Shown one piece after another: positions 8,946 to 23,004 of a DNA stretch of 24,402 nt. The position numbers were made by a program, and so were the translations under genes. Numbering within the stretch: the first letter of the stretch is position 1; the number at the start of each line of letters is the position of its first letter. This DNA is from a virus, in the UHGV virus genome UHGV-0126695; one strand, 5' to 3'. The notes under the pieces were generated by a model. That model did no database searches and was not told where the DNA came from. It worked only from the letters and a program-made list of their open reading frames with translations.

Positions 8946-9848
8946 TTATGCCGGGGTGGTGATGTACGGGCTGTCCACGATGTCCACATCCTTGTACCAG
9001 ATGTTGGAATCGCCGCCGTTAACCAGCATGGCGTCAATGATCTGCTTCGCGTCCGCGCGGTTTCTCGGCCCCACCACAAGGGTGGTCGGGCGGATACCCA
9101 GCGGTTCACCGTTAGTACCCTTCATGCCCCGCAGCAACTCATTGGCTTTTTTGTAGTTCTCCACCGTCAGTGCCGCACGGGAACCGACGGCGGTCTGCCA
9201 GAAGCCAAACCCTGCATTACCGCGACCGTCCACTCCGTACAGGAATTCGTGGTTTTTGAAGGTGTGCTCACTGTTCAGATCGTCCAGGGCTTCAAACTTA
9301 AAGGCGCGTCGCGGCTGCCAGATGATGGGTTTCAGCACCTGTGATTCATCAATCAGAAACCACGGTTCGCCCTTGTCTGATGCCGGGGTGCCGACAACGT
9401 TGCTGTAGGTGCCGTCACCCAGCGGGTGGTCTTCATCAAAGAAGTTCTGGCCGTCAAAGCACAGAGTGTTAAATCCGGCACACAACAGGCCGTAACACAG
9501 CTTGTCCGGGAATACGGCTGTCATGCGTCCATAGCGCTCAGCGGTAATGCTGTACTGACCAATCTGATCATCTTCAATGTGCTCACGTTTAACGCGGATC
9601 GAACTTTCCCAGAGTTTGTTGGTGATGGTGTAACCATAACCGTCCAGCGTTGCCAGCTGACGCTCGCCAACCCATTCTTTGATGTCCGGCAAATCTTTCA
9701 TCCAGCCGTAGGTGTTGGAAGCAGACGAACTCGGCACCTCAGAGGCGATACGCTTCCATTGCGGCTCGACACCACTCAGACCACGGGTATAAGCGGCGCT
9801 CAGACAGGTGGTCAGCGCGTGAAGGACTTCGGAAGTGACTGCTCCCAT
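8946..9848 (-). CDS. T: Major capsid protein (Mu T / gp34-like)
   Basis: 300-aa ORF directly downstream of the protease/scaffold gene with ATGA overlap; size and context as Mu T. Confidence 0.85.
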   Translation of the reverse strand: MGAVTSEVLHALTTCLSAAYTRGLSGVEPQWKRIASEVPSSSASNTYGWMKDLPDIKEWVGERQLATLDGYGYTITNKLWESSIRVKREHIEDDQIGQYSITAERYGRMTAVFPDKLCYGLLCAGFNTLCFDGQNFFDEDHPLGDGTYSNVVGTPASDKGEPWFLIDESQVLKPIIWQPRRAFKFEALDDLNSEHTFKNHEFLYGVDGRGNAGFGFWQTAVGSRAALTVENYKKANELLRGMKGTNGEPLGIRPTTLVVGPRNRADAKQIIDAMLVNGGDSNIWYKDVDIVDSPYITTPA

Positions 9849-10810
9849 CAGTTATTCTCCTGTTTAGGTTTAGCGGCGAGGAACTCTTCCCCGGTAATAC
9901 CCATGCTGCGGCACATCGCCAGTTCGGCGTCGGTCAGTGTCTGCGCGGGTTTATCCTTGCCCTGGCTGGGCTTGTCGTTGTTCACCAGCGGCTGTGCACC
10001 TTTGGTATACTCCGCAAACTGTTTGCGGCCTTCTTCCGTGCGGCAGGTGGCAAGGAACATGTCACGGTTTGCCGGGGCCACTTTTCCGGCTTCGATGGCC
10101 GCATCCACAAGCGCTTCTGCTTCCTTCTCTTCCAGTTGCTGAAGGCGTTGTTCTGCGGTTTCGGCACGGTTCAGTGCCAGATTGTGGGTTTCCACCGGTA
10201 CAAACTTCGTCAGGTCAGGTGTCTGTGCGCGGTTCAGCGCCACCTGTTCGTTCTCCTGAAGTTGTTTAATGGCGGCCACGGTATCGTCCACCGTGGCAGA
10301 TTCAGCCAGCCCAAGCAGGCCGGTGATTTGCACAGGTACTGTCATCGGGTTTTTCTCCGTATTCAGTGCAGGAAAGTCCAGGTTAGGTTTGTTGGTCAGC
10401 CCGACGCTGGACAGGCGCGTCACCACACCGTCTGCGTCAAAGAAAAACGCCGGGCTGTAATAGCGATAGCGGCGTTCGCTCAGCATCCACCGGGCGTACT
10501 CGCTCCAGACAACACGGCCTTCAATGGTGCCGCTGTCCGTCACGCGCAGTTCTTCCACCCAGCCATACGCCGGGGCTTCATCACCGCGTTGCCCTTTAAT
10601 TTCGGTGGCGTGTTCAATGTCCACCGGAATTTTGATGTCGGACGAGCGGGTGACCACCTCATGCGGATTGCGGTTAATCCACGTCCGGCCATCGCGCCCG
10701 GTGAACTCACCCGCAGGGACGAGTTCGAGCCATTCCGGCAGTTGAGCAGGTGTCAGCTCAGGGATGGGTTCTGGCAGGGAAAAACACAGCGCCAGCAGTT
10801 CCGGTTGCAT
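9848..10810 (-). CDS. I: Head maturation protease / scaffold protein (Mu I / gp32-like)
   Basis: 320-aa ORF, first gene after a non-coding regulatory region; coiled-coil-like C-terminal half (QRLQQLEEKEAEALVDAAIEAGK) consistent with a scaffold domain. GGAG RBS 7 nt upstream. Confidence 0.8.
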   Translation of the reverse strand: MQPELLALCFSLPEPIPELTPAQLPEWLELVPAGEFTGRDGRTWINRNPHEVVTRSSDIKIPVDIEHATEIKGQRGDEAPAYGWVEELRVTDSGTIEGRVVWSEYARWMLSERRYRYYSPAFFFDADGVVTRLSSVGLTNKPNLDFPALNTEKNPMTVPVQITGLLGLAESATVDDTVAAIKQLQENEQVALNRAQTPDLTKFVPVETHNLALNRAETAEQRLQQLEEKEAEALVDAAIEAGKVAPANRDMFLATCRTEEGRKQFAEYTKGAQPLVNNDKPSQGKDKPAQTLTDAELAMCRSMGITGEEFLAAKPKQENN

Positions 10811-10859
10811 GTCAGTCTCCGTCGTTTGGGGTTACCGACGGTCAGTATGCGGAAGGCAG

Positions 10860-10889
10860 AAAAAAAGCCGGATTTACCGGCTTCACTGA
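10860..10889 (-). terminator. Intrinsic terminator-like hairpin with T7 tract (minus strand), copy 1 of a duplicated element upstream of a late operon
   Basis: Minus strand reads TTCAGTGAAGCCGGTAAATCCGGCTTTTTTT: stem AAGCCGG/CCGGCTT, loop TAAAT, then seven T. Nearly identical to the element at 18571..18600. Confidence 0.6.
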
Positions 10890-15901: not shown

Positions 15902-16195
15902 TCAGTCCCTCGCACGGGGTTTTTTAACGCCCGGAACGCTGGACAGGCCGTTTGCCACATCCTCGCCGCTGCCGGTGATTTCAGCCACGTAACAGCCGCC
16001 CACATCAGACAGACGAACCAGCCCCTGCTCGCGAAGCCATGCAAGCTGGGTGCGCACCACATCACGGGATACCTTATGACCGTAAGCCTGAAGGCAGGTC
16101 TGCAACACGGATTCATTCGCGCTGTCGCCACAGTCCAGCAGGGAACGCAGCAACACAAGACGACGGTCTTCAGTGAGGATCTCTTTCATCGCCAT
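15902..16195 (-). CDS. Small winged-helix-like hypothetical protein
   Basis: 97-aa ORF tightly packed between neighbours; sequence (VRTQLAWLREQGLVRLSD) suggests a winged-helix fold. Function not recognised. Confidence 0.55.
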   Translation of the reverse strand: MAMKEILTEDRRLVLLRSLLDCGDSANESVLQTCLQAYGHKVSRDVVRTQLAWLREQGLVRLSDVGGCYVAEITGSGEDVANGLSSVPGVKKPRARD

Positions 16196-16500
16196 TATTT
16201 TTTTTCCTTTAACTCGTTCTCTAATAACAAATTGCTGATGCGGGATACCTGGCGGATGGATGGCCCCAGCTCTTTGATTTCTCCCCGCAGGTTGCTGATA
16301 TCCAGTTGCAGGCGGTGGAACTCATCACGGTCGGGTAAATGGTGTACCTGGCTTTCCATCACCGACATGCGGGAACGGAGTGAATCAAACTCTTCGCGTT
16401 TGACGTAGGTTTTCGCCAGAATCAGCTGAAGCAGGTTTATTCCTGTCATCAGCAATGCCCACAGAATGGGCCAGTTGGCTCTGATCATTTCCCAGGACAC
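16195..16500 (-). CDS. Membrane-anchored coiled-coil protein (Mu gp25 / DUF2730-like)
   Basis: 101-aa ORF with an N-terminal hydrophobic segment (WPILWALLMTGINLLQLILA) followed by a charged helical region. Confidence 0.6.
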   Translation of the reverse strand: MSWEMIRANWPILWALLMTGINLLQLILAKTYVKREEFDSLRSRMSVMESQVHHLPDRDEFHRLQLDISNLRGEIKELGPSIRQVSRISNLLLENELKEKK

Positions 16501-16712
16501 GTTTTCCTCCTGCGTTCACGCATCTGCTGACAGTCAATACAGGTCACCACATCCGGCAGCGCCGCAAGGCGCTGTGCCGGAATAACGTTCCCGCAGTCAT
16601 TGCATAAGCCCCGGCTGCGGGGCGCTTCTTTTGTCCGTGTCTGCCAGGCTTTAACGACGCTCTGACGCTCGTTCAGAACCACTTCACTGATGCGGTCGAT
16701 TTCGTCGGTCAT
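16485..16712 (-). CDS. TraR/DksA-family C4 zinc-finger protein
   Basis: 75-aa ORF with CxxC-N17-CxxC (CNDCGNVIPAQRLAALPDVVTCIDC), characteristic of phage TraR-like proteins. ATGA overlap with the upstream gene. Confidence 0.8.
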   Translation of the reverse strand: MTDEIDRISEVVLNERQSVVKAWQTRTKEAPRSRGLCNDCGNVIPAQRLAALPDVVTCIDCQQMRERRRKTCPGK

Positions 16713-17317
16713 TTCGGCCCCGCAGACATTTTGTGACGGCTTGATTTGCTGTAACGGGCAAAGCCGTCAAGGGTTCTTACACCGAGATAGCCCAGCGCCG
16801 GGGTAAGCAACATCAGCGTGATATCCCAGTCCGGTGATGGCATATGCAGCGTGATACCTCTGGCACCGGCAATGGCTCCGGCAATCTGGCCGCAGGAGAG
16901 CAACAGCACATAGGCCAGACTGCTGTAACAGGAAAGGCGGGCCAGCAGCGGGCGTGTCTGGCGCACATAGCTGTCCGTGGCGTTGTCACCATTGCGGATG
17001 GTTTCCTGCTGTTCGTGGTGTGCGGCCTGCTGGTCAGCCAGCACCAGCTTCTGCCGTTCCACCTCCAGCTGTTGCAGCTGAACTTTCAGGGTTTCCATCT
17101 GCACCAGTTGCTCCGGTGACAGCATCACCAGTTTTTGTTCCAGAATGCGTTGCTGTTCAGCAACGGGCAGGCTTTCCCGGACGCTTTCCACCATACCGGC
17201 CACCGAGTCTGCGGCGGCAGATGTGCTGCCACCAAACCAGCGCCCGACGGAACGAATCAGCCCCGGCCCGGCTTTCAGCAGAACAGAGGCGATGCCTGAA
17301 AGGGTTAACGGATCCAT
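16709..17317 (-). CDS. Holin-like protein (coiled-coil N-terminus, hydrophobic C-terminus; 3TM-holin-like)
   Basis: 202-aa ORF in the lysis cassette; central coiled coil (QQRILEQKLVMLSPEQLVQMETLKVQLQQLEVERQKL) and C-terminal transmembrane segments. Confidence 0.55.
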   Translation of the reverse strand: MDPLTLSGIASVLLKAGPGLIRSVGRWFGGSTSAAADSVAGMVESVRESLPVAEQQRILEQKLVMLSPEQLVQMETLKVQLQQLEVERQKLVLADQQAAHHEQQETIRNGDNATDSYVRQTRPLLARLSCYSSLAYVLLLSCGQIAGAIAGARGITLHMPSPDWDITLMLLTPALGYLGVRTLDGFARYSKSSRHKMSAGPK

Positions 17318-17715
17318 GAATCCCCCTTATGAAAACGGCGCTGATGTTTATAAAGTGCCGCGCAAAAGATACTGCCCATCCAGAACGCCAGTTGATAAGG
17401 CTCCTTCAGATAAAGAATGCCGAATGTCAGCATGAAAAAACCAACGGCCCAGACCACCCATGACCACACGACAATTCGAAGGGAGGCGGCCCGGAAACGC
17501 CTTTTGGGTTGCAGGCGATAAGGTACGTTGCCCAGCTGGAAACTGTGAATCAGGCAGAGTGTCGCGCCGTATGCCAGCACCATGACCGCAAACGCCCGCC
17601 ATCCGGCAAAACAGCTCGCCAGAAAAAGTACTGCCGACAGCCCCAGAAACGACCACTGGCACAACATAAAGCGGGAGTAAATAACGCGAACAAAAAGACT
17701 ATTCATTCTGTGCAT
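17305..17715 (-). CDS. Integral membrane protein (about four predicted TM helices); holin/antiholin or exclusion candidate
   Basis: Likely start is ATG 17715 (MHRMNSLF...) with an AAGGA RBS. The track's longer N-terminal extension to 17886 is Thr/Pro/Arg/Trp-rich and overlaps the better 75-aa ORF, so it was trimmed. Confidence 0.55.
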   Translation of the reverse strand: MHRMNSLFVRVIYSRFMLCQWSFLGLSAVLFLASCFAGWRAFAVMVLAYGATLCLIHSFQLGNVPYRLQPKRRFRAASLRIVVWSWVVWAVGFFMLTFGILYLKEPYQLAFWMGSIFCAALYKHQRRFHKGDSWIR

Positions 17716-17926
17716 TGAGTTTTTCCTTGTACTTCTGGCACTGCCAGAAAATGTCCCGTGTATCCACGGAGTTCCAGCCACGCATGTAGTAGCTGGCGTG
17801 TGTGCCGTCATGGCCGGTATAGTCCAGCGGTTTCGGGGGCGGACCTCCGGCCATGCGGTGTAAAACCTCCTGACGCAGGCGGTCACGCCGCCCGGCTTTC
17901 AGGGAGGCGTCCCAGCCTTTGCCCAT
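17699..17926 (-). CDS. Small hypothetical protein immediately downstream of the endolysin
   Basis: 75-aa ORF starting 1 nt after the endolysin stop (TGAcATG); its composition looks protein-like, unlike the competing overlapping frame. Confidence 0.45.
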   Translation of the reverse strand: MGKGWDASLKAGRRDRLRQEVLHRMAGGPPPKPLDYTGHDGTHASYYMRGWNSVDTRDIFWQCQKYKEKLNAQNE

Positions 17927-17927
17927 G

Positions 17928-18515
17928 TCACCCCCGCGTGGTGGACGGCGCGTTGTCGATGATTTCCAGACAGGCGTCGGTCAGTTTTTCCATGCGGTTA
18001 AACCAGCCGTTCAGGTATTTGCCCTGGGCGGGTTTGGATTTGATGATGTCGGCATAAAAGCGGGAACGACGGACAATGCAGCGGGTCAGCAACCAGTCCG
18101 GGGTGGACAGGCTCACGGCCTTACGGGTACGCGGGCCGATGATGCCGTCAGCATCCACATCAGCGGCTTCCTGCAAAATTTTGATAGCTTTTTTAACGCC
18201 ATGCTGAACCGCCGCATCGAACACAAACATCGCCACGCCATCAGGCCACTGGTCACATCCGGCAGGCAGCCAGTAATCGCGCCAGTAAATCTGCGCAACC
18301 TGTTCGCGGGTTAAATCCTTAATGCGGGTGTCGGGTTTACCATCGCCGTTGACATCGGTTTTGCCGTCAATCACACCGTCGCGGCGGTCAGAAATGCCGT
18401 ATTTGGTTTCGCCGCCACGGTCTGTGGGGTCATTGACATAGACGCCTTCGATATCAGGACGCAGAATAAAATTCAGCGCATGTTCAAAAGCCGGAGAGAA
18501 TTTTTGATTTTCCAT
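17928..18515 (-). CDS. Endolysin, glycoside hydrolase family 108-like N-terminal domain with C-terminal peptidoglycan-binding domain
   Basis: 195-aa ORF; N-terminus EGVYVNDPTDRGGETKYGIS matches the GH108 lysozyme signature region, and the C-terminal region resembles a PG_binding_3 domain. AGGTG RBS. Confidence 0.85.
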   Translation of the reverse strand: MENQKFSPAFEHALNFILRPDIEGVYVNDPTDRGGETKYGISDRRDGVIDGKTDVNGDGKPDTRIKDLTREQVAQIYWRDYWLPAGCDQWPDGVAMFVFDAAVQHGVKKAIKILQEAADVDADGIIGPRTRKAVSLSTPDWLLTRCIVRRSRFYADIIKSKPAQGKYLNGWFNRMEKLTDACLEIIDNAPSTTRG

Positions 18516-18615
18516 AAAAGCACCTGTGAAGCAGATTTAAACGTGGTCTGCTTCATGGTGCCGGAGGCATAAAAAAAGCCGGATTTACCGGCTTCATTGA
18601 ATTAAGGGAAGATAA
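18516..18615 (-). promoter_or_regulatory. Non-coding region upstream of the endolysin gene; candidate late promoter (P_lys-like)
   Basis: 100 bp between the cargo gene stop and the lys ATG. Contains the hairpin/T7 element and a perfect 8-bp inverted repeat gaagcaga-N11-tctgcttc (18528..18554) just upstream of the lys RBS. Confidence 0.45.
18571..18600 (-). terminator. Intrinsic terminator-like hairpin with T7 tract (minus strand), copy 2 of the duplicated element, upstream of the endolysin gene
   Basis: Minus strand reads TTCAATGAAGCCGGTAAATCCGGCTTTTTTT; 27 of 27 core positions match the 10860..10889 copy except one C/T difference. Confidence 0.6.
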
Positions 18616-19095
18616 CTACTCATCTCCTTTGATGGAGCAATCTATTACCATATCGTTACCCATCTTGAGAAATTTGGTTTGCATGAGAAAACCCTGTATC
18701 ACGTCAGTTAACCCATACCCTTCAACTTTTGTAGCTGAAACTACCATGTCAATAATTCGTTTCTGCTGCTTCTCTGTTAGTTCACCAATTGCTGACTCCG
18801 CAACTCGCGAGCATGCCACAAAAGAAGACAACACACCTGAAGGATTGTTTTCATAATCCTTCACTGTCGTCGTTGAGCTGACGACTTTATTGTTGATCGT
18901 AAATACCCCGAATTTGCTGTGAGCAGTTTCAGTTCCACCGTTCTTAATAGAATCGCCTCCCTTAAGAGGCTTCCAGCTATTTAGTGCAATGAGATCTTTT
19001 TCTGTCAGACGTTTTTTGATGACATCTTCAGCTGGCAACTTTGCCGCATTAGCGCAAAATACGCTCAGTAAAAGTATAAGAGGAAAGTATTTCAT
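18616..19095 (-). CDS. Secreted hypothetical protein (N-terminal signal peptide), cargo/moron gene
   Basis: 159-aa ORF with a typical signal peptide (MKYFPLILLLSVFCANA|AK). AT-rich by eye compared with the flanking late genes. Start overlaps the Mor stop (ATGA); followed by a terminator-like hairpin. Confidence 0.7.
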   Translation of the reverse strand: MKYFPLILLLSVFCANAAKLPAEDVIKKRLTEKDLIALNSWKPLKGGDSIKNGGTETAHSKFGVFTINNKVVSSTTTVKDYENNPSGVLSSFVACSRVAESAIGELTEKQQKRIIDMVVSATKVEGYGLTDVIQGFLMQTKFLKMGNDMVIDCSIKGDE

Positions 19096-19502
19096 GACTC
19101 ATCCTTAAACAGTTGCATTTGATATTTTCCACGCTCCAGCCTTCGCATTCTTTTGATAGCTTGATATACCGTTTTGTATGTCACTTTGTAACGCTGCACC
19201 AGTTCCGCTACGTTTTTCCCATCAAAATCACGCCAGATGCGCATGTCTCTGATAAGATTTTCCAGTATTTTCCCTTTAGGAACATATACCTGAATCCCAC
19301 CGATATGATTACAAATCGCCACTACCAACTCAAGGGAATGAACCGGGTTAACCCCAAGCCTTATCAGTTCCTGTCGCAACAGAGCATTCAGCTCTGAAAG
19401 TAGCGCCGGGTAAACATATTTTTCCTGATAATCGTGAAGATATTCCAGAACGCTGTCGTCCCGGAAGTCTTCGAATAAATCCTGCTCTTTCATTTGTTTC
19501 AT
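19092..19502 (-). CDS. mor: Mor/C-family transcriptional activator (Mor-like)
   Basis: 136-aa ORF; long stretches (YPALLSELNALLRQELIRLGVNPVHSLELVVAICNHIGGIQVYVPKG...IRDMRIWRDFDGKNVAELVQRYKVTYKTVYQAIKRMRRL) closely parallel the phage Mu Mor sequence as I recall it. Sits directly after GemA with ATGA overlap, as in Mu. Confidence 0.85.
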   Translation of the reverse strand: MKQMKEQDLFEDFRDDSVLEYLHDYQEKYVYPALLSELNALLRQELIRLGVNPVHSLELVVAICNHIGGIQVYVPKGKILENLIRDMRIWRDFDGKNVAELVQRYKVTYKTVYQAIKRMRRLERGKYQMQLFKDES

Positions 19503-20050
19503 ACAGCAATTCTCCCGCTGTTTCGTGCGCGGGCATACGCACTGGTCAGTGCATCATATCCGCGCAGCTCCCGCCCGGTTTCGCTCACAGGTAAAGGCAC
19601 ACCATGTCGGGCAAAGGCTTCACGGATGCAGCGCATATGCCACTGTTTGAGCGTTTCGAGCACAACCTGCAACGATTCCCCATGACACCAGGCCAGCGTG
19701 GAAACACCCTGACCACCATTACGTCTGGCCGTCAGGCGCTCAACGTATTTGTCCAGCGCAGCGTCGCTGATATCGGAAACGAAACCATCAAGGAACATCT
19801 GCTGCCAGATTTTGTAAATCTTCTCGCGTGGTGTGACATGCCCCTTAAAGCGACGGCGGGGATGTTTTTTCTGCTTCTTAAAACCGCGCTCTTTCATGGC
19901 ATCGAGCACTTGTTCCAGTTGTGCAACGGACAGCTCGCGGCAACTGGTTTTGCCCGTGCACTGCACCAGAAAAGCTCGGTAAGTGTCATCGTCGAGTTGC
20001 AACTCCCGACGGGCAACATGAATTAATTTAATCAGGGATGTGCGGCTCAT
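19499..20050 (-). CDS. gemA: GemA-like regulatory protein (Mu gp16 / DUF1018-like)
   Basis: ORF immediately upstream of mor; likely start ATG 20050 (MSRTSLIKLIHVARRELQLDDDTYRAF...). The track's longer version starts at 20095. Confidence 0.7.
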   Translation of the reverse strand: MSRTSLIKLIHVARRELQLDDDTYRAFLVQCTGKTSCRELSVAQLEQVLDAMKERGFKKQKKHPRRRFKGHVTPREKIYKIWQQMFLDGFVSDISDAALDKYVERLTARRNGGQGVSTLAWCHGESLQVVLETLKQWHMRCIREAFARHGVPLPVSETGRELRGYDALTSAYARARNSGRIAV

Positions 20051-20417
20051 TATGTCCCATCTCCTTAATGCAGTGTTTTTCGACCCATGCCACACGAGCA
20101 GAATTCAGGTGACATCTGCCAAGTCTGCATTCCTCATGATAGTGCGCTCTACTTTCATTGAAAGGTAATAATTCATCCAACTCGTTCGCGATAAAATCTG
20201 CACGTAATTGTTCTAATATATCTTCGGTATCCACTCCGATTTCGTCAAAATAACGACAAGCATTTGCACATAATCCTGAATATTGAACAAATATTTCACC
20301 CTCTGTTTCTGGTGCACCATTTTTTAACCACTGGTTATAGGCAACATAAAAATCATAAAGATGTTTTCTGGTGCTGGCGGATGTGGATTTAATTTCATTT
20401 TTCTCTGTGTTATTCAT
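20028..20417 (-). CDS. Hypothetical acidic Cys/His-containing protein (AT-rich accessory gene)
   Basis: Likely start ATG 20417 (MNNTEKNEIK...) with a GAGG RBS; C-terminal Cys/His cluster (HYHEECRLGRCHLNSARVAWVEKHC). The region is visibly AT-rich. Confidence 0.5.
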   Translation of the reverse strand: MNNTEKNEIKSTSASTRKHLYDFYVAYNQWLKNGAPETEGEIFVQYSGLCANACRYFDEIGVDTEDILEQLRADFIANELDELLPFNESRAHYHEECRLGRCHLNSARVAWVEKHCIKEMGHNEPHIPD

Positions 20418-20592
20418 TTCGTAATACCTCTTCGCAATAAAAGATTTCACTGGGATAACGTTTTTGTATGCGCTCCATCACCTGCATACATGCCTGCTCG
20501 GTGGGCCAGATTTTTTCCGTTACGGGTATGGCATCACAGGCATCATTCCCACAGGTGCCAACCAGCAGGACAAAGCCAATTGACTTAACCAT
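20410..20592 (-). CDS. Small Cys-rich protein with N-terminal hydrophobic signal-like segment (possible secreted protein or lipoprotein)
   Basis: 60-aa ORF MVKSIGFVLLVGTCGNDACDAIPVTEK...; it is the internal start of track ORF 20410..20688, chosen because the longer form would overlap the upstream gene. Below the 60-aa reliability range, so confidence is modest. Confidence 0.4.
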   Translation of the reverse strand: MVKSIGFVLLVGTCGNDACDAIPVTEKIWPTEQACMQVMERIQKRYPSEIFYCEEVLRNE

Positions 20593-21768: not shown

Positions 21769-22056
21769 TTAATATTCGCTGTATACAATGCTGGATACAG
21801 CACGATTGCTTAATTCCATCTTTTGGGCAATGACATGAATAGCCAGCCCTTCTTTATAAAGTTCACGACATAAATATTTGTCGTGCTCACTGACCTGGTA
21901 TACACACAACGATATTCCGTGCCTTCTGGCATGTGCCTGTAGGGCGGTTGGGGCAACGTTCAGTTTTTTCGCCATTTCTTCAACGGTCAGTTTCCCGACA
22001 CTGGCTTCGATAAATTCCCGGTCTTCGCGTGACCAGCGTTTACGCTTACACATCAT
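21769..22056 (-). CDS. Hypothetical DNA-binding (HTH) protein
   Basis: Track ORF starts at a GTG (22068); the first ATG is at 22056 (MMCKRKRWSREDREFIEASVGKLTVEEMAKKLNV...). HTH-like segments; function unknown. Confidence 0.55.
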   Translation of the reverse strand: MMCKRKRWSREDREFIEASVGKLTVEEMAKKLNVAPTALQAHARRHGISLCVYQVSEHDKYLCRELYKEGLAIHVIAQKMELSNRAVSSIVYSEY

Positions 22057-22068
22057 TCCGGTCACCAC

Positions 22069-22488
22069 TCAGTACAACAGGGGGTCACGCAGTGATGCCG
22101 GAATATGCCGCAGCGATAACTGAACCGCTTTCAGGGCAAGGGAAGAATACGTCCCCTGCGTCCAGCCTTTCGCCATTTGCCGGTAATCGCGCCAGATGTT
22201 CTGCCACTGCTCCCGTGCGTCCGGGTCTGACGCGCTGATGTATTCGCGGTCCATGACGTATTCCCATAAATCCTCGTTAAACGCACCGCCAAATGCGATG
22301 GCGTTGGAGATGTTTTCGCCACAATAACGTGCACAAATGCTGTAATGGTCAAATGCAATCAGATAAGTAGTTTCACCATGCTCATAAACTTTGCGGGCGC
22401 AAATAAATTCGCGTAAGTCTCCGCTATTGTTATTACGCATTTTGATTCGAATTAATGCCTGGATTTCGTTTCTGATTTTGGCGTTCAT
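22069..22488 (-). CDS. Hypothetical early-region protein
   Basis: Track ORF 22069..22512; ATG 22488 (MNAKIRNEIQ...) has an AAAGGAA RBS and avoids overlap with the upstream gene. The alternative start at 22512 cannot be excluded. Confidence 0.5.
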   Translation of the reverse strand: MNAKIRNEIQALIRIKMRNNNSGDLREFICARKVYEHGETTYLIAFDHYSICARYCGENISNAIAFGGAFNEDLWEYVMDREYISASDPDAREQWQNIWRDYRQMAKGWTQGTYSSLALKAVQLSLRHIPASLRDPLLY

Positions 22489-22502
22489 TGTCAGCGTTCC
22501 TT

Positions 22503-22766
22503 TCAGTGACATGTTCCTTCAACTGTCGTTTCTGTGACACTGCCGCCCGCAATGACGCCATCATTTTTCAGTATTTCAATGGCCTCATGGGCTGACTCGC
22601 GAACGATATCCCGGCTTTTTTCCAGAACCAGTAACGCTATCGCACCAGCAAGCGTGTACTCATCACCATCCAGTTCTGCGCTGTGGTCCACGTTAACATT
22701 GGTGCGTAAATCCTGCCCTTTAACTTCAGATGTCACATTTTTGATTTCGATAATGACTTTTGCCAT
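22503..22766 (-). CDS. Hypothetical early-region protein
   Basis: 87-aa ORF with a strong AAGGAG RBS 8 nt upstream of ATG 22766. Confidence 0.55.
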   Translation of the reverse strand: MAKVIIEIKNVTSEVKGQDLRTNVNVDHSAELDGDEYTLAGAIALLVLEKSRDIVRESAHEAIEILKNDGVIAGGSVTETTVEGTCH

Positions 22767-22779
22767 TTTGTTTCTCCTT

Positions 22780-23004
22780 TTAGTCCAGAATAACGCCTAC
22801 TTTTACTGTTGTGCCTTTTACCTGTTTAAAGAAAACCGCACTGCACCACGGGCAACATGTAAAGGTGTCCCATACTTCTTTCTCTGGTGAACATTGCGTC
22901 ATGATTTGCTCTTTGCATTTAGGGCAATTGAACGCAGTCAGTGCGACATTGTTGCTTTGTGCTCGTTTAACCCATTCGATATATTTCTCAGCACTAATAC
23001 ACAT
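22780..23004 (-). CDS. Small zinc-ribbon-like protein (two CxxC pairs)
   Basis: Likely start ATG 23004 (MCISAEKYIEW...) just after the Kil-like stop; contains CPKC and CPWC motifs. AT-rich. Confidence 0.5.
   Translation of the reverse strand: MCISAEKYIEWVKRAQSNNVALTAFNCPKCKEQIMTQCSPEKEVWDTFTCCPWCSAVFFKQVKGTTVKVGVILD

Follow-up and report, generated by a model that had tools for sequence, protein, structure and literature searches.

Few soluble periplasmic proteins of phages have a known role, and T4 Spackle and P1 Sim are the usual examples. Spackle (Sp) is a small, non-essential superinfection-exclusion protein that is produced early in the lytic cycle with a cleavable signal peptide and is soluble in the periplasm; its structure is reportedly the subject of a paper by Shi et al. 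in 2020. Sim (superimmunity), said to have been described by Maillou and Dreiseikelmann in 1990, is exported by the Sec pathway, is cleaved and stops infection after adsorption. We know of no soluble periplasmic protein with a known role described for Mu-type phages. Classical morons (lambda bor/lom, HK97-type) have a promoter and a terminator of their own and are expressed in the lysogenic state. In Mu, gp18-gp20, encoded between mor and C, are non-essential small envelope-directed proteins (PMC9239132).

Here we analyse an ORF of the viral genome UHGV-0126695, called X in the following (18616..19095, minus strand); "the window" denotes the whole stretch of 24,402 nucleotides. X resembles the known accessory envelope proteins of phages in kind and belongs to none of their families. 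With T4 Spackle it shares a small size, a predicted signal peptide, a predicted soluble periplasmic location, an inferred early timing and dispensability. Predicted Sec export and cleavage are common to X and P1 Sim; Sim, however, is larger and made from a plasmid prophage, and the two are likened by description, not by homology. Like the classical morons, X is present or absent between close relatives, deviates in composition (GC 0.41, against 0.55-0.59 in the late genes; mor, 0.43) and appears to be directed to the envelope. Unlike them, it has no promoter-like site, is apparently coupled to mor, borrows what is probably the terminator of the early operon and keeps its slot across genera. 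Mu gp18-gp20 also adjoin mor, lie ahead of the endolysin and have no known function, but they are membrane proteins whose genes lie 3' of the dyad and Pm, whereas the gene for X, a protein predicted to be soluble, lies 5' of the dyad. A gp18-like gene (PF26867), separate from X, is found 3' of the endolysin gene in the relatives.

Results

Gene X and its surroundings

The window is a Mu-like prophage, with a transposase/B/early region ~85% identical to Mu, SfMu and D108. The genes around X follow the order of Mu (repressor, ner, A, B, gam, gemA, mor, endolysin, terminase, portal, protease, major head, sheath, tail genes), and the features of the locus are collected in Table 1. The plus-strand letters tcat at 19092-19095 read ATGA on the minus strand, where the stop codon of mor (TGA, 19092-19094) lies over the start codon of X (ATG, 19093-19095). 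A preliminary description of this DNA had already pointed to a 159-residue ORF with a clear signal peptide, to the overlap of its start with the mor stop and to a terminator-like hairpin behind it, and all three were found at the positions given in the table.

Table 1. Features of the X locus in the window
Feature	Position	Strand	Description	Evidence
CDS X	18616..19095	minus	ATG start, 159 codons (159 aa); precursor of predicted periplasmic protein	ORF list, dN/dS, PHROG 38744, AlphaFold
Signal peptide MKYFPLILLLSVFCANA	19045..19095	minus	codons 1-17; predicted SPase I cut after A17	hydropathy and motif analysis
Shine-Dalgarno AAGGA for X	19102-19106	minus	6 nt 5' of the ATG, within the final codons of mor	read from sequence
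mor (Mor/C-family transcription activator)	19092..19502	minus	59% identical to Mu Mor	Pfam PF08765, E 1.6e-29
Exchangeable cassette	18603..19066	minus	differs between otherwise 90-96% identical prophages	blastn break points
Hairpin GAAGCCGGTAAATCCGGC then T7	18571-18595	minus	8-bp GC-rich stem	terminator scan and fold
GH108 endolysin with PG_binding_3	17928..18515	minus	first gene of the next transcription unit, neighbour of X	Pfam PF05838, PF09374
Lysis region after the GH108 endolysin	16195..17926	minus	genes listed in the text	

The same description had noted that X is visibly richer in AT than the late genes. This is so (GC 41.2% against 55-59% in the lysis and late genes), but mor is equally AT-rich (42.6%), and low GC therefore cannot set X apart from mor or mark a separate insertion: the AT-rich block is mor together with X, not X by itself. 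No sigma-70-like promoter was found on either strand between 17800 and 20200 in a promoter scan. A classical moron with an autonomous promoter and terminator was accordingly rejected as a description of X, its terminator being a shared element that follows mor (see below).

Compared with two E. coli alleles, X has a dN/dS of 0.08 and 0.12, which denotes purifying selection and excludes a chance ORF; by the measure of its codon conservation, X is a real gene. In the allele that is 80% identical at the protein level, dS reaches 0.88 in X against 0.16-0.31 in the flanks, which argues that this allele was swapped in by recombination and did not evolve in place. Positive selection behind the 80% allele was rejected, because dS is high as well; there is no drive of adaptive substitutions.

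Predicted export and fold of the product

The N-terminus of X reads MKYFPLILLLSVFCANA followed by AK, with a positive n-region (K2), an h-region at residues 4-14 and the cleavage motif A15-N16-A17. The hydrophobic core averages 2.69 on the Kyte-Doolittle scale over 11 residues and is the sole hydrophobic stretch of the protein, no other window exceeding 1.6. X thus shows every sequence feature looked for in Sec/SPase I substrates (n-region, h-region, AXA, absence of a further transmembrane segment), and the same layout is repeated in 16 of the 16 relatives examined. The product is predicted to be exported to the periplasm by this Sec-type signal peptide.

The lipobox pattern [LVI][ASTVI][GAS]C is absent from X, the residues ahead of C14 being S-V-F. 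Moreover, C14 is replaced by Ser in two close relatives (P0004 and P0005) and is missing in distant members. X is not a lipoprotein because of this replacement and of the F that precedes C14, and with the lipobox go an o-spanin and a receptor blocker of the Llp/Cor type. A spanin was ruled out on further grounds: X has neither a transmembrane domain (also not at the C-terminus) nor a coiled coil, its model is globular alpha/beta, its gene lies 5' of the terminator/Mor-box, and it is missing in 14 of 47 relatives with the same lysis genes.

Mature X would have 142 residues, ~15.4 kDa and a pI of ~8. Its only cysteines are C95 and C153, which the family alignment shows to be invariant, as are P21 and W41; the two cysteines are spaced by 58 residues in nearly all members of clade A (the clade of X; 59 and 57 in two members). 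A periplasmic disulfide, predicted here, would be expected to show this pattern.

An AlphaFold model built on an alignment of 15 diverse sequences reached a pLDDT of 85.3 and a pTM of 0.79 (an earlier run with 7 close sequences was poor, pLDDT 53), residues 1-20 having low pLDDT. In the model, mature X is a single compact alpha/beta domain with an N-terminal helix (23-34), a six-stranded sheet (strands 56-60, 63-67, 71-78, 128-133, 136-145 and 148-156) and a helical hairpin (87-103, 108-123), and the invariant cysteine pair joins a long helix to the last strand in sequence. The modelled fold is a generic alpha/beta sandwich with a topology like that of PAS and PDC (Cache)-like extracytoplasmic domains, and carries no functional assignment.

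A small family with a fixed place in the genome

Searches of Pfam, NCBIfam and PADLOC (E<=1) gave no match for X, and Pfam gave none for 14 relatives either; against the sequences of the PDB, both single-sequence and profile searches returned chance matches only. X has no sequence or fold likeness to T4 Spackle, no Pfam, sequence or fold match to the periplasmic lysozyme inhibitors (Ivy, MliC/PliC, PliG, PliI), and no likeness to any exclusion protein of solved structure. To this extent X resembles nothing, as had been written of it beforehand. It does, however, match PHROG 38744 over its full length (E 8.7e-110, residues 1-159 of 159), its sole family match and a family without annotated function, which also matches 14 of 15 aligned relatives.

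Neither blastn nor tblastn found X in 50,697 deposited phage genomes; a scan of one genome per species gave no relative, and a literature search on the X accessions, the PHROG identifier and Mu-like periplasmic exclusion proteins brought up nothing relevant. A word-indexed search of 5.8 billion proteins yielded six clusters at least 74% identical to X, and an exhaustive profile search of 1.84 billion cluster representatives yielded eleven members of the family. The distant relatives share ~20-25% identity with X, have 150-169 residues, and all carry a signal peptide. By source name the relatives come from E. coli, Citrobacter freundii, Salmonella enterica, Serratia marcescens and Morganella morganii, each annotated "hypothetical protein". 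The allele cluster of this window occurs on several hundred E. coli contigs; at >95% DNA identity, the allele was found in one of 5,426 complete E. coli genomes (UMNF18), and IMG/VR holds only 3-4 near-identical loci. The UMNF18 prophage (L019) is itself a degraded copy: its sheath gene is cut short, frameshifts affect two baseplate genes, and the region corresponding to 6000-8800 of the window is missing.

The order mor - X - endolysin was found in all six clade A relatives whose context was looked up (E. coli L007, metagenome contig L008, Serratia L015, Morganella L016, Salmonella L017 and Citrobacter L018). X had been described beforehand as a cargo gene; with relatives of 20-25% identity at the equivalent place in Mu-like prophages from at least five enterobacterial genera, it is not sporadic cargo but an accessory locus typical of its lineage. 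In Morganella, the endolysin beside the X relative is of the Peptidase_M15_4 type and not GH108, which ties X to mor and the end of the early operon rather than to one kind of endolysin. Divergence is also uncoupled: for two alleles, identity to X is 98.7% and 80%, and the respective endolysins are 94.4% and 94.9% identical. A dedicated partner of the GH108 endolysin was rejected on these two observations. Compared with the E. coli locus L007, X is 24% identical and its neighbours are 46-67% identical, which makes X the fastest-diverging gene locally. These comparisons support the view that X is an accessory protein which can be dispensed with, diverges fast and belongs to a single lineage of Mu-like transposable prophages in Enterobacterales.

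The hairpin behind X and the transcription unit

The hairpin lies fifteen bases past the stop codon of X, and the whole intergenic region 3' of X folds with a z-score of -5. In sequence, the hairpin is nearly the same as the stretch after mor in Mu (AAAGCCGGTTAATCCGGC then T7), which is presumably the early-operon terminator at 9.2 kb known from work of the Howe laboratory. The same Mu dyad is here taken to be the Mor-binding site of Mu. At the middle promoter Pm of Mu, Mor binds to a pair of 5-bp inverted repeats within a 16-bp element whose centre lies at -43.5 (PMC4390567, PMC4287176), and the primer used for cloning Pm begins at nt 9163 and spans the post-mor dyad (PMC9239132). By likeness to Mu, the hairpin of the window probably has two roles at once, ending the early transcript as an intrinsic terminator and serving as the dyad to which Mor binds at the first late (lys) promoter.

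In 16 of 18 loci the motif has a single copy, placed between X (or mor) and the gene that follows; it is also present where the slot is empty, thus a shared post-mor element. Moreover, an exact 25-nt element, GAAGCCGGTAAATCCGGCTTTTTTT, is found twice on the minus strand of the window, where none is expected by chance: once as the hairpin 5' of the endolysin gene, and once at 10860-10884, 5' of the protease/scaffold gene (9848..10810). We take the position of the second copy to correspond to the P_I promoter of Mu, and from this copy the element would act like an activator box that also ends the upstream transcript. No C-like second activator was found between mor and the endolysin gene. If the element is both a terminator and the box of a Mor-dependent late promoter, one activator of the Mor/C type would drive the late operons directly.

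Each copy is followed by a second stem-loop on the minus strand. The one at 18520-18561, ~10 nt past the first copy, pairs GCACC with GGTGC and holds the Shine-Dalgarno sequence AGGTG in its 3' arm; the one at ~10815-10845, ~20 nt past the second copy, pairs CCGTCG with CGACGG, followed by AG, before the protease gene. In each case the stem-loop ends either at the Shine-Dalgarno sequence of the first gene or over it. The outer lys stem does not vary in six of six loci, and compensatory changes occur at 4 of 12 pairs. The stem-loop at 18520-18561 may regulate translation of the endolysin or belong to the promoter.

The ATGA overlap and the position of X ahead of the hairpin support X as the last gene of the early operon, translationally coupled to mor. 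In Mu lysogens, Pe is silenced by the repressor. Mor is encoded in the early operon of Mu, which is driven from Pe and requires no new protein synthesis (PMC2582627). Standing last in such a repressor-controlled operon, X would be produced early in the lytic cycle and is probably off in lysogens; a weak internal promoter, or read-through, could still give some expression there.

The lysis region that follows the endolysin gene contains a gp18-like small protein, an overlapping membrane-protein ORF (~17250-17700) that varies between relatives, a 202-residue protein with a weak match to GTA_holin_3TM, a DksA/TraR zinc-finger protein and a DUF2730 protein, DUF2730 being the family of the Mu gp25 "releasin". 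The endolysin has no obvious SAR or signal sequence, and no clear spanin pair was identified in this region.

The slot is polymorphic between close relatives

We surveyed the slot in 47 records of complete E. coli genomes with gemA-mor...endolysin synteny. A member of the X family fills it in 24 records, and a different, very divergent secreted protein of 165 residues with the same N-terminus as X (variant B) fills it in nine; in the other 14 (variant C) it is empty, with the hairpin directly after mor. The comparison of syntenic prophages proposed beforehand as a check thus showed a variable slot. No annotated pseudogenes were present in the stretch examined of the empty-slot KFu019 prophage, and phage Mu has nothing between mor and the dyad. 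This distribution supports the dispensability of X.

The exchange has sharp borders. Against variant B, homology ends 29 nt into X, at 19067 (within the codons for MKYxPLILLL), and restarts at 18602; against variant C, it ends at 19132, within the 3' end of mor, and restarts at 18608. Variant B has its own family of ~19 clusters from Escherichia, Citrobacter, Yersinia, Kluyvera and Salmonella, and the single B-clade relative examined in context (L009, Citrobacter) is likewise flanked by mor and the endolysin gene. Aligned with hhalign, small profiles of X and B gave a probability of 81% over the N-terminal 60 columns, and larger profiles, in a full-length alignment that matched W41 and both cysteines, gave 64% (E 6e-5). 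Variant B is probably, but not certainly, a very distant clade of an X superfamily.

The Mor proteins of these loci differ at their C-termini. In variant C (L005/L006, 1211-1660), Mor has a 17-residue Pro/Arg-rich extension, YPSPNLPHPVRRPPRRP. The four-residue tail KDES/KDEQ (19092-19103 in the window), which encodes the Shine-Dalgarno sequence of the downstream gene, is present only where the slot is filled; the Mor proteins of Mu, Citrobacter and Serratia end in ...QLF/SLL.

Compared with three related prophages, the window has a backbone 90-100% identical, interrupted by about five replacement hot spots, X among these, most of which fall on AT-rich patches. A second mosaic hot spot is the AT-rich middle (~3400-4300, GC 0.46-0.50) of a 612-residue tape-measure-like gene (2637..4475, minus strand), replaced or absent in three otherwise 95-99% identical prophages. 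Further AT-rich (GC ~0.40-0.43), variable genes of the early region lie at 20028..20450 (minus strand) and ~22050-23000; they include a 140-residue protein that matches PHROG 6418/2510 and has no known function. Both stretches are replaced in UMNF18 and KFu019, which makes them other accessory slots of the early operon.

Discussion

All together, the observations are best explained by an exported early-lytic protein that takes part in envelope-level conflict, likeliest by blocking the entry of superinfecting phages; we give this explanation as a whole a probability of about 0.35. Within minutes of induction or infection, the repressor-controlled early promoter would drive transcription of X, which would be off in the quiescent lysogen. 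Its product would be exported and oxidised to a soluble, disulfide-bonded periplasmic protein, which may act in an envelope-level conflict in that compartment. There it could block a periplasmic entry step of a superinfecting phage while repressor immunity is off, as a functional analogue of T4 Spackle and P1 Sim. The replacement of its alleles, as well as its presence or absence, may then reflect a shifting specificity for competitors. As to function, periplasmic superinfection exclusion is our best guess, at a chance of roughly one in three. Between three prophages, the X allele showed no visible correspondence with the variable middle part of the tape-measure gene, a weak comparison at this number (n=3), and so there is no sign of coupling to this entry component.

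The immediate downstream neighbour of X is always an endolysin gene, and X might thus be a periplasmic accessory of lysis that sets its timing (antiholin-like, cf. T4 RI) or modulates the endolysin or the peptidoglycan before lysis. Indeed, the predicted location of X is where the periplasmic domains of holins and the released endolysin act, and X is non-essential, like antiholins. However, X lies on the early side of the terminator/Mor-box, outside the lysis transcription unit, the Morganella relative sits beside an unrelated endolysin, the divergence of X is uncoupled from that of the endolysin, variant C keeps the same lysis genes without X, and a protein with no transmembrane domain, lipobox or coiled coil is no spanin; we consider such a role quite unlikely. 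The preliminary description had also named a conserved lysis-cassette component with orthologues at this position as the finding that would speak against an accessory secreted protein. Orthologues at the same position do exist, but X is not a member of the lysis cassette, because it stands on the mor side of the terminator/Mor-box, is missing in 14 of 47 records and in Mu, and has an unrelated endolysin beside it in Morganella. The export, early timing, hypervariability and PAS/Cache-like topology of X would also suit another envelope function in early lytic growth, such as masking a component so that progeny are not lost on debris (cf. T5 Llp), countering a defence or toxin that acts in the periplasm, or binding a ligand through the PAS/Cache-like domain. 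A soluble protein with no lipid anchor is nevertheless a poor candidate for a blocker of outer-membrane or LPS receptors, and X matched no defence or immunity family in PADLOC, so functions of this sort seem unlikely.

We give little credence to a factor of lysogenic conversion or host fitness that acts from the resident prophage (envelope resistance, colonisation, exclusion in the lysogen). X is AT-rich and variable and encodes a secreted product, as many morons do, and the strains that carry it are often pathogenic isolates (ETEC/STEC, human and pig). Against this, no promoter-like site was found from 17800 to 20200, the overlap of its start with the mor stop ties X to an early operon that is repressor-silenced in Mu lysogens (PMC2582627 and general knowledge of Mu), and the low GC common to X and mor is no mark of a separate insertion. 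If X is early-lytic and silent in the lysogen, the host-fitness reading is weaker and exclusion during lytic growth more coherent. That X is a non-functional chance ORF or a decaying remnant, as might be thought of a gene with no annotated homologue and a family of 11 representatives among 1.84 billion, is scarcely credible: dN/dS is ~0.1; length, signal peptide, the Trp and both Cys are kept between genera at an identity of 20%; the predicted structure is of good confidence; the gene has a proper Shine-Dalgarno sequence and its coupling to mor; and X is intact on hundreds of E. coli contigs.

Superinfection exclusion by X may be part of a wider pattern. The proteins of the post-mor slot could form a superfamily not described before, early-lytic and periplasmic, whose two deep clades, A and B, block genome entry in the periplasm or sense superinfection and are turned over by competition among co-circulating transposable phages. 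We regard this extension as doubtful; if true, it would bring a new fold and a new family to superinfection exclusion, the first described for Mu-type coliphages.

The slot of X is sharply defined, its product is small with a confident model, and near-identical prophages provide natural "knock-outs" and allele swaps. If X does not exclude phages, it would be one more conserved accessory gene without known function. If it does, X would represent a new protein family in the prophage-encoded phage resistance of pathogenic E. coli.
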